Below, piece by piece: positions 241 through 6,477 of a stretch of DNA of 13,538 nucleotides (position 1 is its first letter; each line of letters opens with the position of its first letter). The DNA lies in sequence record OR621024.1; one strand, 5' to 3'. Made by a program: the position numbers and the translations under genes. The stretch comes from Pseudomonas phage 99-2. Under the pieces are notes generated by a model. That model ran no database searches. It was not told the DNA's origin and worked only from the letters and a program-made list of their open reading frames with translations.

Positions 241-930
241 CTAACTTTCATATTGAGTGGAAATCACATAATCAATAAATCGTCTCTCGATTTCAGAATT
301 CGCCTCGGAAACGTTGTAAAGACAATTGCTTCTTATATCCAATACAATTGTTCTCCCACTCTCTGAAGATTGCAATTTTATCCTATCAAAACGAATTTTC
401 TTTTTACCAAGAAGCTCTTGAGAGGACTCAATCGCATTCTTAGAGCTATACAAATAAAATGTAATCTTCTCACTTGCAGATATAACTTGGCTCGATGCGT
501 AAGCGTGCGTTATGGTCGTCAACGGCAAATTTAAGCTTATAATCTTGTTTGAAAATTTTTCCAGATCAACGTCTATTTGAGATACAAACAACTTTGACTG
601 AGTTATTTCATTCAAAGCCTTAAGAAATGGTTTAATAGATTTTGAAGAGGATTCAATCTGCAGAAGGTAATTTCTCTTAGAAACATGCCGAAGTCTAAAT
701 AAAAAACGACTAACTTTAAAGAAGGTTATGGTCTGCGCAGACGAGTGAATATCAGACTCATTTAATACAACAACTTCCTCTCGATACCAAAAGAAGCCTG
801 ACACATCTCCATCTGTTACATTCAGGTCGTATAATCCCTTTGTAGAGTCCTCATAGTTTTTATTTTTTCTTAGGCGCTCTACAACCTCATGCGACTCTGA
901 TTCAAAATTAAGGTTAAATAGCTTGTGCAT
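241..930 (-). CDS. Hypothetical protein, 229 aa (third gene of low-GC three-gene operon)
   Basis: Long ORF in ~37% GC DNA. The start lies 8 bp after the upstream gene's stop, with SD TGAGG 7 nt upstream. No TM segments, no Walker motif, no recognisable catalytic motif. Confidence 0.7.
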   Translation of the reverse strand: MHKLFNLNFESESHEVVERLRKNKNYEDSTKGLYDLNVTDGDVSGFFWYREEVVVLNESDIHSSAQTITFFKVSRFLFRLRHVSKRNYLLQIESSSKSIKPFLKALNEITQSKLFVSQIDVDLEKFSNKIISLNLPLTTITHAYASSQVISASEKITFYLYSSKNAIESSQELLGKKKIRFDRIKLQSSESGRTIVLDIRSNCLYNVSEANSEIERRFIDYVISTQYES

Positions 931-938
931 TTTAGGCC

Positions 939-2054
939 TCAGCTTGCGGGTTTAGGGGCCACCTGCTGTGTTAACTTACTTATCAGCTTCCTCGCAGTGT
1001 TTTCTATCTTTGTATGCAGCTCTCTCTCGACGCCACCTGGCGGAGCAATTCTATTAGTAGAGTGGTTCCCCTGAGAAATATACCGATAGTAGCCTTTAAC
1101 CTTTTGCGAGAACACAGTACAGTTTTCAGAATCTTCGAATTTAACCTCAACCTCATAAATGTCTGGAGTGGCACTACTTTCAATGCAAGTCCAAACAGCA
1201 TGATAGCTATAAAATCCTTTGCTATGCAGCAGGTCAACCTCCTTTGAACTCAGAACGCCTTTACCATTCAAAGAAGCCTTGAAAACATGAGTGCCACTAT
1301 CAATATCTTCCGCTTCATCTGAGTCAGAATCACCAAGCTCACTACCAGAATCAGATTTTTTCTTTTCCGGATTAAAAACAGAGACCTTTGAAACGTCTAC
1401 CAGTTCAAAGCCATCTATATTGTTTATCAGATCCTCCAGAAATTTTGACCTATCTTTTGCGTCCTCGATAAATTCCAGACTAATAGCTTCAATCGTTGGT
1501 TTTCCTGAACTGTTTTTGACTAAAAGCTCTAAAAAGTGTTTAGACCACTGATCCGAGTCTTCATTACATTGCGACCTCATCACAAGCTCACCTGCTAGCT
1601 CTGTAATAGTTATGGTCGCTTCTTTCGTAACAGTTTGCTGAAGCTGGCTTTTATTAGGGTTAACCTTGTTATAGGTTATCGTAATAATGATCTCATTACC
1701 TAGCTTTTGAACCTGAGCAAAAGCATCTTTAGGATAATCCTTTGCATTAATTATACCCTCAAGCTCGCTAGCCGCATTAATGACCTCTCTCGAATCTGAG
1801 CCAGCTATAAACTTGGTAGTTATCTTCTCCCGATGAGTGATTGACTGAAGATTTGAAGTCAACTCATCATAATCTCGATAACCAGTAAACATTCTGGAGT
1901 AATAAGACGCCAGCTCCTCTCTTTCCGTCTTAGGGGAAACAATTATACCTCTTTTAAAAAACAGTTCTGACAAGCTCTGATTGCTAACTTTGGCGCTTTT
2001 AACAGCATCGTAGATAGCCTTGTCATTTGGCATGTAAAAATTTTTCTCTTCCAT
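939..2054 (-). CDS. Hypothetical protein, 371 aa (second gene of three-gene operon); two-domain with acidic Ser/Asp linker
   Basis: ORF with SD GGTGGTAAG upstream. The start is 4 bp after the upstream gene's TAA. Internal linker KKKSDSGSELGDSDSDEAEDIDSG. No recognisable motifs. Confidence 0.75.
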   Translation of the reverse strand: MEEKNFYMPNDKAIYDAVKSAKVSNQSLSELFFKRGIIVSPKTEREELASYYSRMFTGYRDYDELTSNLQSITHREKITTKFIAGSDSREVINAASELEGIINAKDYPKDAFAQVQKLGNEIIITITYNKVNPNKSQLQQTVTKEATITITELAGELVMRSQCNEDSDQWSKHFLELLVKNSSGKPTIEAISLEFIEDAKDRSKFLEDLINNIDGFELVDVSKVSVFNPEKKKSDSGSELGDSDSDEAEDIDSGTHVFKASLNGKGVLSSKEVDLLHSKGFYSYHAVWTCIESSATPDIYEVEVKFEDSENCTVFSQKVKGYYRYISQGNHSTNRIAPPGGVERELHTKIENTARKLISKLTQQVAPKPAS

Positions 2055-2058
2055 TGAC

Positions 2059-3138
2059 TTACCACCCGATATCTTCTTTGCTGAAATAGTCGCTCACAGT
2101 CGGTATCACTTCGAACTCTATGCTTTTTATTATCTCAGACTTGCCCCATCTCCTTACATATTCATCTGCCGCACTCCTGAAGAAACTTCTAGCTGCATCA
2201 TCCTGATCTTGCCCTATCGCCCTAATCGAAATTTTCTTACTATTATTAAGTATCTGGTAATTCGATAGCGAGTCGATCAAAAAGAACATCTCTTTCCAAT
2301 CTTTTATTTTCTCTTTATAGTAGACTTTATGTCCGGGCTCAATAGTCTCGGCAACCCGCCCATCTTCGCCATAAAGAGTTCTACCTTGATACTCAACAAT
2401 CATAAAGGGGGCTGAAATAAGCTCCAAAGTCGCAGGCCGCTCATTTGGCAGCATACTGACTTTATGAAGATTTAAATCTGGATAATGGAACTGATAGTCT
2501 TTTGTATTGAACTCCCCCTTTGCTTGCAGCTTCAGGAAGTCGTCAATTATTGTTCTTATATATTTTATTGTCCCTGGCTCCATAATATGGATCTGCTGAC
2601 CCTTCTGAAGATCAATATTCTGAATATTAATATCCTGCTCATTTTCAGACGATTTCCCAGTTCTTCTTTTATTCTTTTTACCGTAGAACACTTCGTAAAA
2701 ATTGCTATCCCAACCACCATCATGGTTGTAAACAAACAACATCCCTCTTATATCTGTATCTCTTTCCGGAATAGAGTAACGATCGCGCCATTCCCTACTC
2801 AATCTCGCACAATCTATTGTCTGCGCCATTGATTTAAGCGCCGATCTAATTGTTCCCTGCTTTATTGAGCCCTTTGCGTAGCTCTTTAGATCGGTGTTTA
2901 GAATAATTTGCTTATTTGTATAGGGATCTTTGTATGAATAAACCGCGTCAGCCGGATGGTTATGATCTTCAACCTTTTCGCTTTCATCATCTTGCTTTTT
3001 ACTTTTATGCAAGCTCGCCTGCTGACAAGTAAAATTCTGGCTATATGGTGGATGAGTATTCCATTTCAACCATGGAGTGATTTCTTCTGCGATTTTTGTC
3101 GCAATGTTGGCAATGCCTTCTCTTTCCCCGCCCGCCAT
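2059..3138 (-). CDS. Hypothetical protein, 359 aa (first gene of three-gene operon)
   Basis: ORF starting ATG 3138 with SD GAGGAC upstream, preceded by a 93-bp AT-rich spacer. No canonical Walker A (GKKNKRRTGKSS does not fit GxxxxGK[ST]). No TM. Confidence 0.75.
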   Translation of the reverse strand: MAGGEREGIANIATKIAEEITPWLKWNTHPPYSQNFTCQQASLHKSKKQDDESEKVEDHNHPADAVYSYKDPYTNKQIILNTDLKSYAKGSIKQGTIRSALKSMAQTIDCARLSREWRDRYSIPERDTDIRGMLFVYNHDGGWDSNFYEVFYGKKNKRRTGKSSENEQDINIQNIDLQKGQQIHIMEPGTIKYIRTIIDDFLKLQAKGEFNTKDYQFHYPDLNLHKVSMLPNERPATLELISAPFMIVEYQGRTLYGEDGRVAETIEPGHKVYYKEKIKDWKEMFFLIDSLSNYQILNNSKKISIRAIGQDQDDAARSFFRSAADEYVRRWGKSEIIKSIEFEVIPTVSDYFSKEDIGW

Positions 3139-3231
3139 GCTCAGTCCTCACACATTCTTAAGATTAATCATTACCTGATAAATACTCGACACACCGGTAT
3201 TTAATTCAAACGATTTAGGTTGAACGATTTA
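3139..3231 (-). promoter_or_regulatory. AT-rich spacer upstream of the three-gene operon; putative promoter (TTGAAT ... TATTTA on minus strand)
   Basis: Only non-coding gap in the minus-strand cargo array. Sigma70-like hexamers are present but the spacing (~19) is imperfect. Confidence 0.25.
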
Positions 3232-3558
3232 TTACCATTCTTTTTCTCTCAGACCTTCAATGCACTCTTTCACGTCATCATTAATGACGTCCCCAGGCTT
3301 GATGCATTCCTTCATGGTGCGACGAACCCCGCGATTGGCTTCGCGTTCTCGTTGATCTTGGGCTTTGAGGTTGGCTCTGGCAGCTTCGCCCATGGGGCCT
3401 TTGGATCCGGCGAACAGTTTGTTCACCAGCTTCTGCATGCCTTTGCCGTAGGCTTCGGCAGCAAGTCTGAGGGCATCACCCACTTGGTGGGTGGGAACGG
3501 GCTTGGATTCTTCTGCGAAAGCGGGGCTTAGGGCCAGTGCCAACAGCATCCTTTTCAT
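3232..3558 (-). CDS. Small secreted/periplasmic protein, 108 aa, with signal peptide (MKRMLLALALSPAFA|EE) and two KECI motifs
   Basis: ORF with SD GGAGA 7 nt upstream. Classic signal peptidase I site. ~52% GC. Lies immediately downstream of a repressor 3'-end repeat copy. Confidence 0.55.
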   Translation of the reverse strand: MKRMLLALALSPAFAEESKPVPTHQVGDALRLAAEAYGKGMQKLVNKLFAGSKGPMGEAARANLKAQDQREREANRGVRRTMKECIKPGDVINDDVKECIEGLREKEW

Positions 3559-3577
3559 TGGTCTTCTCCATTCCTTC

Positions 3578-3700
3578 GGGCGTACCAGCGTCTAGCTACT
3601 TCCTAGGTGGTCGCTATCCCGCGTGTGGATTGGCCTCGCTATAGCCAGGCCCCTTCTGGCCATTCTCTGGCATCAAATCGCCAGTAAGCAAGCACCACTA
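3578..3700. repeat. Diverged direct repeat, copy 1, of the repressor 3' end and downstream sequence (partner 4095-4231)
   Basis: ~58 nt near-identical (gggcgtaccagcgYctagctacttcctRggt..tcgctatcccgcgtKtggattggcc) followed by ~70 nt of diverged homologous sequence. Confidence 0.65.
3614..3697 (-). pseudogene. Remnant of a P2 C-type repressor C-terminus (WCLLTGDLMPENGQKGPGYSEANPHAG*), preceded by an in-frame stop
   Basis: Translation of the minus strand aligns with the C-terminus of the intact repressor at 4132-4404 (WWLLTGEVIPENGQTSPDYDEANRNLANPNAG*). A TAG stop immediately upstream truncates it. Confidence 0.5.
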
Positions 3701-3815
3701 ATGTCTACCTCTCCCTTACGCCCTCACCCGCTTTCTTCGGGCCGATACCACTGCGGTGGCCATACATACCGTCATCCACACGCCGACCAGTATCTTGTGA
3801 CCAGGCAGCATCACG

Positions 3816-4070
3816 CTATTGGTCATAAACCAAGCTATAAGCGCTACCACCACCCAATCGAATATATAGGGCTGCCTTAGCCCTAGAAGCGGATTCCAGC
3901 GTTTTGACGAGAGGCTTAACCAGATATGCGAAACACGTGAGGCAGTAGAAGCCCGTGTAGAGGCTTCCGTAAAAGCTGAATCCGATATAGAGCAAGCCGC
4001 TTACAGCGCTGCCTGCCACGATTGAAAAGCCTAGATTGTTACGCCTTTCGAGAGCTTCGAGTGTGATCAT
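3816..4070 (-). CDS. Small membrane protein, 84 aa, 2 predicted TM helices (moron between the two repressor-end repeats)
   Basis: ATG at 4070 with a plausible codon pattern and hydrophobic stretches GFSIVAGSAVSGLLYIGFSF / FYCLTCFAYLV. The opposite-strand ORF 3623-3880 is His-rich and implausible. Confidence 0.45.
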   Translation of the reverse strand: MITLEALERRNNLGFSIVAGSAVSGLLYIGFSFYGSLYTGFYCLTCFAYLVKPLVKTLESASRAKAALYIRLGGGSAYSLVYDQ

Positions 4071-4094
4071 TGCTTGCCGTCCTTGACCTGATTA

Positions 4095-4231
4095 CGGGCG
4101 TACCAGCGCCTAGCTACTTCCTGGGTAATCGCTATCCCGCGTTTGGATTGGCCAAGTTTCGGTTGGCTTCGTCGTAGTCGGGGCTTGTCTGACCGTTCTC
4201 CGGTATCACTTCGCCGGTAAGCAACCACCAC
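4095..4231. repeat. Direct repeat copy 2 (covers the 3' end of the intact repressor gene plus 37 bp downstream)
   Basis: See 3578-3700. Confidence 0.65.
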
Positions 4232-4404
4232 CTATAGCTAGGGTAGAGCTTTCCGAGTATCTCGATCTCATCCGCGCCGACCCGTGCTCTCCCCCTCTTG
4301 ATGTTCACCCAACGTGGGTAGTCGGTGTCACCCGCCTTCGAGAGTTCTACCAAGCTCGCTGCGTTAATCAGTTGAAGGGCTCTATCAGACAGCTTATCCG
4401 TCAT
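4132..4404 (-). CDS. Immunity repressor, P2 C-like (Pf4r-like), 90 aa
   Basis: The C-terminal half (YRWWLLTGEVIPENGQTSP...) resembles the P2 C repressor C-terminus as I recall it (...YTLWFMTNQIAPESGQIAP...). Divergent from a Cox-like gene across an AT-rich operator region. Confidence 0.6.
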   Translation of the reverse strand: MTDKLSDRALQLINAASLVELSKAGDTDYPRWVNIKRGRARVGADEIEILGKLYPSYRWWLLTGEVIPENGQTSPDYDEANRNLANPNAG

Positions 4405-4515
4405 TATAAATACTCATGGCATGTCATATGTACAAAATGACAAGTTGCCCTTATGGTTTGCACATATGGCAAATTCATACGATTTGCCGTCATTGGTGAA
4501 ACATAAGGTACAGCT
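4405..4515. promoter_or_regulatory. Divergent promoter/operator region of the C/Cox-like switch with two inverted repeats
   Basis: AT-rich 111 bp between divergent genes. TGTCAT-N9-ATGACA at 4422-4442. GGCAAAT-N7-ATTTGCC at 4468-4488. ATGGCA direct repeats at 4416 and 4466. Confidence 0.5.
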
Positions 4516-4788
4516 ATGGAAGAGTCTGGAATAGTGGGGTTCACCGTCACAGGTGCTGTGGAGAAGGTCACGGACTTCCGCACCGCGCCGTTCTGCTCGC
4601 AGGCGGTCTTCGCGCAGATGCTGGGCCTGGAAGACATCACGGAAGACGTGGTGCGGGGCTGGGTGGAAACCAAGACGATTCCGACTGCCAAGATTGGCCG
4701 TCGCCGCGTGGTGAACCTGCACCGCATCCGCCGTGACCTCGACCGGGGTAAGTCGATCTTCTGCCAGGGGGATTACGACGGTGACTAG
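4516..4788 (+). CDS. Cox/XisF-like excisionase-regulator, 90 aa
   Basis: Size, position and the segment FAQMLGLEDITEDVVRGWVETKTIPTAKIGRRRVV resemble P2 Cox (FAKLIGKSTGAVRRMIDKGKLPVIDM) from memory. High GC3 codon usage. SD AAGG. Confidence 0.55.
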   Translation: MEESGIVGFTVTGAVEKVTDFRTAPFCSQAVFAQMLGLEDITEDVVRGWVETKTIPTAKIGRRRVVNLHRIRRDLDRGKSIFCQGDYDGD

Positions 4789-4802
4789 GTACCTCGTAGA
4801 GA

Positions 4803-4996
4803 TGTGCACCTTTCACGGCCCGACTCGGCAACGTCGTTGGCATCGTGTCCATCAGGGCATTTCCCGCGTGGAATGCCAGCGCTGGGTTGAAGAATCGGTG
4901 GCTGTCTTCCCGACCGAAGAAGAAGCCCGCCGCTCCTTCGGCCTGACCCGCGAACGCGCTCGCCAGGCGTACCGCATCTGTGGGGTGAGGGCATGA
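4803..4996 (+). CDS. Hypothetical small protein, 64 aa
   Basis: ATG at 4803 in a GC3-rich frame ending 3 nt before the next gene's start. Weak support. Confidence 0.35.
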
Positions 4997-4999
4997 ACC

Positions 5000-5287
5000 A
5001 TGGCCGCCAGTCCCTACTACCTGCGCCAAACCCACGCCCCGGACTGCGCCTGCTCTGTGTGCTGGTCCGCAAGGCAGGCCATCCCATTGCACAACCCGTC
5101 GCCGTGTCCGGACTGCCGGCCCCCTGGGCTGCCCTATCTGGAAGATGGCCGCTGGTTCTGCCGTCCCCGTTCCTTCTGCGCGAAACACGACCCGTCCCGG
5201 CGTCCGCCGAAGTACTGGCACGTTGTGTACGACAGCGGGAAACCCACGCCCGGCGTTCGACTGCACAAACCTTTCGTCTTGGAGTGA
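5000..5287 (+). CDS. Cys-rich hypothetical protein, 95 aa (7 Cys; possible zinc ribbon)
   Basis: ~85% GC3 in this frame versus the overlapping 4993 frame. SD GAGGG 8 nt upstream. Motifs CxCxxC...CPDC. Confidence 0.55.
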   Translation: MAASPYYLRQTHAPDCACSVCWSARQAIPLHNPSPCPDCRPPGLPYLEDGRWFCRPRSFCAKHDPSRRPPKYWHVVYDSGKPTPGVRLHKPFVLE

Positions 5288-5294
5288 CTGCCTT

Positions 5295-5939
5295 ATGAGA
5301 CAGCCAACCGCACTGATTGCCTGCGAGTTCTCCGGGCGTGTCCGCGATGCACTGGCCCGGGTTGGTTTTTACGCCGTGAGCTGCGATCTGCTGCCTTCGG
5401 AAACCGAAGGGGAACACGTCCAGGGGGATGTCCTGGAAATGCTGGACTGGGGGTGGGATCTGCTGATTGCCCACCCGCCCTGCACTGACCTGGCTACCTC
5501 GGGTGCCCGCTGGTTTCCCGAGAAGATTGCTGACGGTCGTCAGGCACGTGCCCTGGAGTTCGTTCGTACCCTGCTGTCGGCGCCTATTCGATTCAAGGCA
5601 CTGGAGAACCCCAAGTCTGTGATCTCCAGCCATATTCGCAAGCCGGACCAGATCATCCAGCCCTGGATGTTCGGACATGGCGAGCGCAAGGAAACGCACC
5701 TCTGGTTGCAGAACCTGCCGCTTCTGGAGCCGACCCGTATCGTCGATGGACGTTCTCCGGTCGTGCATTACATGGCGCCAGGCCCTGACCGCTGGAAGGA
5801 CCGTAGCCGGACCTATATCGGTATCGCCGAGGCGATGGCCGAGCAGTGGGGCCGTTATGTGATGCGGGCCTTGGCGGAACCAGAATCTGTGAGTTTTCAC
5901 CCCCAGCAGCAGGACCTGCTGCGTGTCCTGGAGGGCTGA
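5295..5939 (+). CDS. Short (214 aa) protein with DNA cytosine-5 methyltransferase-like motifs (FSG ... HPPCTDLATSGAR ... ENP)
   Basis: ATG at 5295 with SD GGAG. Motif IV-like PPC with downstream S.G.R. Motif VI-like LENPKSV. Motif I-like EFSG lacks the Gly-rich loop. Too short for a target recognition domain. Confidence 0.55.
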   Translation: MRQPTALIACEFSGRVRDALARVGFYAVSCDLLPSETEGEHVQGDVLEMLDWGWDLLIAHPPCTDLATSGARWFPEKIADGRQARALEFVRTLLSAPIRFKALENPKSVISSHIRKPDQIIQPWMFGHGERKETHLWLQNLPLLEPTRIVDGRSPVVHYMAPGPDRWKDRSRTYIGIAEAMAEQWGRYVMRALAEPESVSFHPQQQDLLRVLEG

Positions 5940-6477
5940 CCCGTGCTCGCTGACACCCTGAAAGCGCTGCTCCTGCTCTGCCTGATCCAGGCCGCCCGCA
6001 CCGTGGCCGATCCGGTCAAGGGCCGCGCTCCCGGCTCGTCGGAACAGCTTCACCGTTCCGGCGAACGGAAGCACGGGCGGAGCGCACCCTTGAACGCCTC
6101 CCCCCTGAAACAGCCTCCGCTGGGGAGTGTGGGGCAGCTCCTCCGCCCCGCGCTCCCGAGCCCTCGGCGGCAAGAGCGGGATGACAAGGGCAGAGCCCTT
6201 GGTGTTAACAGACTTGAAAGTTATTCATTTTGGCGAAAATCGAAATGCTCGTTACTGCACTTTGTTGCTCAATAAGTTCAGTAGCTTGATATTTCCTCAG
6301 AAAAGATTTTAGGCGCTTTAACTGTGTTGATATAGCTCCACTAGAACTCGCTGAAACTCGGTAAAAAAGGCTCTTCTTTTCCTAAGCAATCACTTCCGCT
6401 GAATCACCGGCACATGAGCCGAATTGCAGCAGCGGGCTAACTCACGCCGAAAAAGGCGAATTGAAGGAGAAACACCG

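Follow-up and report, generated by a model that had tools for sequence, protein, structure and literature searches.

The window analysed here, 13,538 nucleotides of Pseudomonas phage 99-2 (sequence record OR621024.1), carries near one end three tightly packed genes of deviating composition, and the question was which function they bring to the phage. A sequence-only reading of the window had proposed for them a candidate undescribed defence system. Our analysis assigns them with high confidence to the 3HP (Rst_3HP) anti-phage family, of which they are a divergent member, and to the accessory cargo of a Pseudomonas aeruginosa Pf prophage. All three genes lie on the minus strand. The first (2059-3138) encodes Hp1 of 359 amino acids (aa), a predicted PD-(D/E)xK nuclease homologous to Rst_3HP Hp1 and to GAPS4a. 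The second (939-2054) encodes Hp2 of 371 aa, a non-enzymatic two-part partner homologous to Rst_3HP Hp2 and, at the profile level, to GAPS4b. The third (241-930) encodes Hp3 of 229 aa, a fast-evolving third subunit with an RdgC-like (tandem TATA-binding-protein-like) predicted fold. The genes are co-directional and are separated by 4 nt (Hp1-Hp2) and 8 nt (Hp2-Hp3), and the coordinates of the open reading frames (ORFs) agreed in full with the layout first described.

The identity of the trio was tested with the PADLOC models (v2.0.0), a check that the sequence-only reading had itself suggested. The Hp1 model PDLC03004 and the Hp2 model PDLC03005 matched the window proteins over their full length (4.7e-45 and 8.6e-35, respectively); the Hp3 model did not match. 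All three proteins were assigned to PHROG families, Hp1 to phrog_7059 (5e-103), Hp2 to phrog_6531 (1e-79) and Hp3 to phrog_5850 (1.3e-21, residues 3-214). The trio proteins of Escherichia coli E1114 fall into the identical PHROGs 7059, 6531 and 5850, with Hp3 matching at 2.6e-96. This E. coli locus is the validated one: Rousset et al. (2022) described a three-gene system from the P2 hotspot of E. coli that protects against P1, tested as pFR109 'hp + hp + hp' and listed with its protein sequences in their Table S2A (PMC9122126). In BLASTP, the window Hp1 was 30% identical to the validated Hp1 over the full length (E 1e-51), Hp2 was 29% identical (E 4e-35) and Hp3 was 27% identical over about 100 residues (E 3e-6). 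The gene order and the homology of Hp1, Hp2 and Hp3 all agreed with 3HP, and only the PADLOC detection was incomplete, with Hp3 missed. Since the homology runs gene for gene to a system that protects E. coli against P1, the window trio is very probably an anti-phage defence system.

At both loci, three co-directional genes with products of similar size (333/359/227 aa in E1114 and 359/371/229 aa in the window) follow one another closely in the same order within an accessory hotspot of a phage, and the invariant HPxD…NTDLKSY of Hp1 is common to both. They differ in sequence, with identities of only about 30/29/27%, and in the carrier, which is a P2-like myovirus of Enterobacteria for E1114 and, unusually, a filamentous single-stranded DNA inovirus (Pf) of Pseudomonas for the window. 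The PADLOC Hp3 model PDLC03006 works on the E. coli copy, which belongs to the model's own family (2e-157), and fails on the window copy. This miss is explained by the narrowness of the model and is no evidence against Hp3 homology. When Hp3 from seven other loci was tested, the model matched those of E. coli, Klebsiella, phage 54-4, Stutzerimonas, Vibrio and a Citrobacter plasmid, and weakly that of a chromosomal P. aeruginosa copy.

An undescribed system, as first proposed, would be in line with the silence of NCBIfam and of the local Pfam-A copy, where zero matches were obtained for all three proteins, and with the lack of any relative in the PDB by sequence. A 2024 survey still could not place Rst_3HP in a known domain family. 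The family is nevertheless present in PADLOC and in the PHROGs, and each gene of the trio has its homologue in a published system. The family is named Rst_3HP in DefenseFinder and 3HP in PADLOC, and it has been counted before in P. aeruginosa genomes. The PADLOC and PHROG matches, the BLASTP hits to the E1114 proteins and the shared PHROGs rule out an undescribed system, and we regard that reading as extremely improbable. Of the original proposal, the defence function was therefore retained and the novelty was not. The statement that the products have no recognisable domains had to be given up in view of the PADLOC matches of Hp1 and Hp2, the PHROG matches of all three proteins, the nuclease assignment of Hp1, the GAPS4b-like Hp2 and the RdgC-like fold of Hp3. 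The Pfam search that had been suggested was silent in our local copy, which does not contain PF26115; this family is on record for Hp1 through precomputed annotations only.

The second part of the assignment, the carriage by a Pf prophage, rests on the ends of the window. Positions 1-82 recur at 13457-13538 as a direct repeat, which is truncated by the end of the window, so that 82 bp is its minimum length. In the left attachment (att) copy at 1-82, a GC-rich, terminator-like hairpin precedes the 3' portion of a tRNA, which has a CAT anticodon loop, and the right copy matches it exactly. ARAGORN found zero complete tRNAs within the window. Because of this end repeat the window represents a complete att-to-att Pf prophage, which is apparently integrated in a tRNA-Met-like gene; tRNA-Met is a common attB site of Pf (PMC11878078). 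The trio is inside the prophage, since the repeat at 1-82 flanks it. The region 3200-13538 was 93-97% identical to P. aeruginosa filamentous phages including PfAC20, PfAC13, Pf1 and 54-4. An ORF at 4132-4404(-) was 47% identical to the PfAC20 repressor and an ORF at 4516-4788(+) was 98% identical to the PfAC20 excisionase. The trio lies between the att repeat and the repressor homologue and on the strand of the repressor, as had been noted from the sequence.

At the equivalent place PfAC20 carries unrelated cargo, an ATP-binding protein, a hypothetical protein and a C5 methyltransferase, and closely related Pf genomes are without the trio. The same prophage with the same trio was present in two further P. 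aeruginosa assemblies. The Pf accessory arms are known to harbour retron, ShosTA, Kiwa, Gabija, Avs and toxin-antitoxin systems (PMC11878078). The GC content of the trio is 39.1% (35% for Hp3, 40% for Hp2 and Hp1), compared to 59.5% for 3232-13538 and 61% for the Pf core. The low GC content was thus correctly recognised in the sequence-only reading, and its figures of 37% and 62% were corrected. These data support the view, proposed before, of the trio as an accessory cassette that the variable arm of the Pf prophage gained by horizontal transfer.

We then asked whether the three genes belong together. A degenerate-pattern scan with one genome per species yielded 80 genome loci with Hp1 relatives, spanning Gamma-, Beta-, Delta- and Epsilonproteobacteria, Cyanobacteria, Bacteroidota and Acidobacteria. 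With iterated hidden Markov models (HMMs), Hp1, Hp2 and Hp3 were found in this order, abutting or overlapping, in 73 of the 80; the 7 others are contig ends. The viral loci from IMG/VR gave the full trio in 75 of 80 cases, the 5 exceptions again being contig ends. Combined, 148 of the 160 fetched loci contain the full trio and the remaining 12 stop at a contig end, so that the three genes form an obligate unit wherever the fetched sequence extends far enough. An absence of co-conservation, which had been named beforehand as speaking against a functional module, was not observed. The family is large, with about 500 clusters of Hp1 at 50% identity among 1.8 billion representative proteins. The best 150 representative-protein matches were exclusively full-length Hp1-type proteins, a listing that is unable to show fused GAPS4a-b proteins. 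In 60 of 70 genome loci the GC content of the cassette was below that of the flanks, with a mean difference of 8.9 points and irrespective of the host GC, which is consistent with a frequent horizontal transfer of a low-GC cassette.

The distribution bears on a reading in which the trio is an addiction or superinfection-exclusion module, with Hp1 as a toxin restrained by Hp2 and Hp3, whose main purpose would be to retain Pf in the chromosome or to keep out other Pf phages and not to protect against lytic phages. The position of the trio downstream of the immunity repressor and on the same strand would suit such a module, as would the pairing of a nuclease with non-enzymatic partners, and toxin-antitoxin modules are carried by Pf elements (PMC11878078). 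However, 66 of the 80 viral loci are P2-like, as judged from terminase, portal or gpA, and 1 is Pf-like, and the trio also occurs on plasmids and in a chromosomal island of P. aeruginosa. Carriers as diverse as P2-like phages, plasmids and the chromosome show that the trio's function does not depend on Pf biology. In addition, the homologous system gave anti-P1 defence when it was cloned alone. We consider an addiction or exclusion module improbable.

Another explanation is that the trio serves the DNA metabolism of the phage, as an accessory module for recombination, repair or replication, and not defence. PD-(D/E)xK and RdgC-like folds are both found in recombination proteins, and the third gene of phage 54-4 is annotated as 'RdgC-like exonuclease'. 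The trio is, however, located in hypervariable accessory hotspots and not in core modules, is missing from close Pf genomes, and has an atypical GC content, below the flanks in most of the genome loci. Furthermore, its homologue has a defence phenotype, and Hp3 is without invariant polar residues. A role in DNA metabolism is very improbable.

The family is broader than its origin in the P2 hotspot suggests. A plasmid-borne trio of 363/415/215 aa recurs in Enterobacter and Citrobacter and is more distant (Hp1 27% identical at 85% coverage). It was fetched from the Citrobacter freundii IncFIB plasmid NZ_CP070546, where it occupies 4001-6994 of the fetched locus, and its third protein matched the PADLOC Hp3 model at 8e-11. 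In many P. aeruginosa genomes, a chromosomal trio that is 62% identical to the window copy was found outside any prophage, at 9001-11899 in four fetched loci, with ABC-2/RND-type transporter genes on one side and the psiE/has region on the other. Its GC content is 39% with flanks of 68%, and it is listed in 103 collection blocks, so that it looks like a recurrent defence islet. A further 3HP trio was found in Pseudomonas phage 54-4 (OR621021) at 485-3252, where it likewise lies between end repeat and repressor. The 54-4 Hp1 is 36% identical to the E. coli/Klebsiella P2 type. As it is only 29% identical to the window Hp1 at the same position, Pf phages seem to have gained 3HP at least twice and independently.

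We then examined which of the three proteins could be the effector. In alignments of 33 and of 54 Hp1 sequences the residues H61, P62, D64, N81, D83, L84, K85, S86 and Y87 were invariant, and E5 in the first helix was nearly invariant. The codons of the catalytic motif H61-P62-A63-D64…N81-T82-D83-L84-K85 lie at 2884-2958(-). An AlphaFold2 model of Hp1 was obtained with a predicted local distance difference test score (pLDDT) of 86.9 and a predicted template modelling score (pTM) of 0.86. In this model, D64 starts a strand at 65-70 and D83-x-K85 is located in the strand 77-87, which places D…(D/E)xK on the central strands of a restriction-endonuclease-like core fold. The precomputed annotation PF26115 'PDDEXK_GAPS4' is assigned to Hp1 and to all its relatives. 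A search of the PDB sequences with the Hp1 profile found no relatives. Hp1 is accordingly predicted to be a PD-(D/E)xK nuclease, the only component of the trio with an enzyme-like invariant motif. The sequence-only reading could assert no PD-(D/E)xK signature; the invariant H-P-x-D…D-L-K on the predicted fold now provides one. The HNH-like hint DHNH in Hp1 overlaps this motif in part, with H61 invariant and D58, H59 and N60 not, and the R-x6-H hint in Hp3 was not conserved in the alignment; both hints were rejected because of this lack of conservation. The residues C38, H44, C110 and H139 of Hp1 are also invariant across the family and could form a structural metal site.

The annotation of PF26115 refers to GAPS4, a defence system described by Mahata et al. 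(10.1101/2023.03.28.534373 and 10.1101/2025.09.07.674715). GAPS4 consists of GAPS4a, a PD-(D/E)xK protein with the motif HGxD-SxK, and GAPS4b, which form a 2:2 complex with a ring-like GAPS4b dimer. The complex degrades phage and host DNA upon DNA breaks or ends and thereby aborts the infection; it is triggered by phage infection, by nalidixic acid and by a DNase of the type VI secretion system. Its protection range is broad, and the equivalent Asp of GAPS4a (D59 or D49) is needed for defence (10.1101/2025.09.07.674715). GAPS4a sequences were taken from File S1 of the preprint, and GAPS4a and GAPS4b of E. coli RiKo from its AlphaFold3 CIF. An IMG/VR locus contains an ORF that matches the RiKo GAPS4b sequence with 100% identity, and a GAPS4b profile was built from 11 IMG/VR viral loci with GAPS4a relatives. 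Where these 11 loci were long enough, GAPS4a (about 302-317 aa) was followed by GAPS4b (369-397 aa). An Hp3-like ORF was found in none of them.

When Hp1 was compared with GAPS4a, hhalign gave 97.9% (E 4.7e-13) over 240 columns, and Hp2 with the GAPS4b profile gave 96.2% (E 2.4e-9) over 264 colinear columns. The negative controls remained low, with 0.25% for Hp3/GAPS4b, 0.5% for Hp2/Hp3 and 0.1% for Hp3/RdgC. An Hp1 HMM built from 3HP proteins only recognised GAPS4a of E. coli, Salmonella, Klebsiella and Aeromonas caviae with 33-42 bits, compared to at most 12.9 bits for shuffled sequences. Similarly, an Hp2 HMM from 3HP proteins only matched the ORF 3' of GAPS4a in 7 of the 11 GAPS4 loci with up to 31.5 bits. 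The link between Hp2 and GAPS4b thus rests on the profile-profile comparison and on the matches to these GAPS4b sequences.

The two systems share a nuclease gene in the first position and the carriage as mobile-element cargo, and the N-terminal PD-(D/E)xK domain of GAPS4a has its counterpart in Hp1, with the catalytic Asp in the corresponding position. A GAPS4a-type protein with a downstream GAPS4b partner was therefore found in the window, whereas the HGxD-SxK motif and the two-gene or fused architecture were not. GAPS4 has two genes that are sometimes fused; 3HP always has Hp3 as a third gene. Taken together, we conclude from these sequence comparisons that 3HP and GAPS4 have a homologous two-protein core, to which 3HP adds an obligatory subunit with an RdgC fold. 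The preprint 10.1101/2025.09.07.674715 makes no mention of 3HP. Other PD-(D/E)xK effectors activated by DNA ends or aberrant DNA are SduA of Shedu and HamA of Hachiman. They resemble Hp1 in the fold only, without sequence homology, and their partners differ; 3HP, for instance, has no helicase.

Hp2 showed no invariant polar or catalytic-type motif in its alignment, and a search of the PDB sequences with its profile found no relatives. Its two parts are joined by an acidic linker rich in Ser, Asp and Glu, which in the window protein comprises the residues 228-254 (1293-1373, minus strand). A linker of 23-66 aa was present in 56 of 56 aligned proteins, and 55 of these linkers are net acidic. The linker contains up to 24 Asp/Glu residues, varies in length and is kept as a feature, not as a sequence, in nearly the whole family. 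The equivalent segment of GAPS4b is shorter and not strongly acidic, and GAPS4b is without a comparable acidic insert. The linker may be a DNA mimic or an autoinhibitory element particular to the three-gene systems. A Pfam scan of each member of the Hp2 alignment gave scattered weak matches to DUF4518 (8 of 56) and bPH_10 (4 of 56), which were not relied on.

Hp3 is the fastest-evolving component, with a mean column identity of 28%, and its alignment contains no invariant residue and no invariant catalytic-type motif. A structure model was built from an 18-sequence alignment, and by two methods RdgC was its best structural match. The structure prediction that had been suggested for the trio hence gave a restriction-endonuclease-like fold for Hp1 and an RdgC-like fold for Hp3. 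RdgC (PDB 2owl, 2owy) is a ring-shaped, double-stranded DNA (dsDNA)-binding dimer that is associated with recombination. Hp3 is about 70 residues shorter and has no detectable sequence similarity to it: hhalign with the E. coli RdgC sequence gave 0.1%, none of 58 Hp3 sequences matched Pfam RdgC, and other Pfam families gave nothing consistent. The Hp3 profile found nothing among the PDB sequences. Hp3 therefore agrees with the RdgC family in the predicted three-dimensional fold and not in the sequence. The depositors of phage 54-4 had independently labelled its third gene 'RdgC-like exonuclease'; the word exonuclease is unsupported because Hp3 has no invariant polar residues.

From these relationships a GAPS4-like mechanism can be proposed for the 3HP system of the window. 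Hp1 would be the effector, a PD-(D/E)xK DNase, and Hp2 would be its GAPS4b-like structural partner in a GAPS4-like complex. This complex would be silent until a DNA signal is received and would then cut DNA non-selectively, resulting in abortive infection. Hp3 would bind or encircle dsDNA, as is suggested by its RdgC-like fold, and would supply or gate the DNA-sensing step. The acidic linker of Hp2 might serve as a built-in DNA mimic and hold the complex inactive. Pf itself would not present the trigger because it replicates as circular DNA by the rolling-circle mode, and the system might for this reason be a safe cargo for Pf. We judge the chances of this mechanism to be even, and the identity as 3HP and the mechanism, when taken jointly, to be rather probable.

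A different trigger has to be considered here. The trio would belong to the same 3HP family and would respond to a specific phage protein or to a replication or recombination intermediate, or it would restrict the invading DNA directly without killing the host. The E. coli 3HP system protected against 1 of 8 phages, P1 alone (PMC9122126), whereas the protection by GAPS4 is broad. Because of this range it can be argued that the trigger is more specific than generic DNA breaks. The fast evolution of Hp3 (mean column identity as above) also resembles that of a subunit that confers specificity or acts as a sensor and is subject to diversifying pressure. Annotations describe RdgC as recombination-associated, and it interferes with RecA filaments; Hp3 might read recombination intermediates. 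On the other hand, the two core proteins have their homologues in GAPS4, which responds to DNA breaks, and a domain binding a phage protein was not recognisable in the trio. A specific trigger or a direct restriction is the main alternative, plausible but rather unlikely.

Several observations weigh against a 3HP system with a GAPS4-like mechanism. The proteins share no more than about 30% identity with the validated system, and Hp3 about 27% over 100 residues, and PDLC03006 did not match the window Hp3 even at E ≤ 10. The motif of GAPS4a, HGxD-SxK, differs from the HPxD…DxK of Hp1, and the Hp2 HMM had no significant match to the single RiKo GAPS4b (3.3 bits, with shuffled sequences reaching 5.9). 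Hp3 resembles RdgC at the fold level only (9-12% identity, TM-score of about 0.49), and this fold is also that of CENP-L and Iml3, two kinetochore proteins that are no ring clamps. The narrow range of the E. coli system, which stopped only one of the eight phages, is not what the broad GAPS4 would predict. Finally, a consensus scan of the spacer 3139-3231 in front of Hp1 found no match to a sigma-70 promoter.

A literature search found no paper on the mechanism of 3HP. What is new here is the mechanistic model for 3HP, in which an RdgC-fold subunit joins a PD-(D/E)xK effector and its GAPS4b-like partner, and the link between 3HP and GAPS4. In a more speculative form, 3HP would be a derivative of GAPS4 that has recruited an RdgC-fold clamp and a DNA-mimicking linker to gate the DNase, and it would be safe for Pf, whose rolling-circle life cycle would never expose the dsDNA ends that act as the trigger. 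We regard this as unlikely in its entirety. If true, it would unify 3HP and GAPS4, would be the first mechanism for 3HP and would explain why an inovirus carries a nuclease directed against tailed phages. In practical terms, automatic tools may leave 3HP of the window type uncalled or incomplete in Pf prophages. As the PADLOC Hp3 model misses the clade of the window, 3HP is possibly under-counted in Pseudomonas and in inoviruses. An abortive DNase expressed in the lysogen could influence the susceptibility to lytic phages, which concerns Pf biology and phage therapy, and if the system is GAPS4-like, a sensitisation of the host to quinolones could follow.

The expression signals of the trio were inspected in the window. 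Shine-Dalgarno-like motifs precede Hp1 (GAGGA, 3145-3149) and Hp3 (GAGG), and a weaker one precedes Hp2 (GGTGG), so that the ribosome-binding site that had been claimed for each gene was clear for two of the three. The AT-rich spacer 5' of Hp1 at 3139-3231(-) was confirmed with a length of 93 nt and a GC content of 34%; its promoter character, as stated above, found no consensus match. The promoter of the trio is presumed to be within this spacer; alternatively, transcripts could enter the trio by read-through from the co-directional ORFs at 3232-3558, 3816-4070 and 4132-4404. A terminator scan found nothing convincing 3' of Hp3.

The ORF 3232-3558(-) encodes 108 aa with a signal-peptide-like N-terminus, MKRMLLALALSPAFA…, matches phrog_5121 at 8e-47 and is 61% identical to ORF5 of PfAC20. 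It is a conserved Pf gene that sits between the repressor region and the variable cargo. A hydrophobic ORF of 84 aa at 3816-4070(-) lies between this gene and the repressor. In the chromosomal islet of P. aeruginosa the trio is followed by a gene of 204 aa with a faint match to DUF4760.

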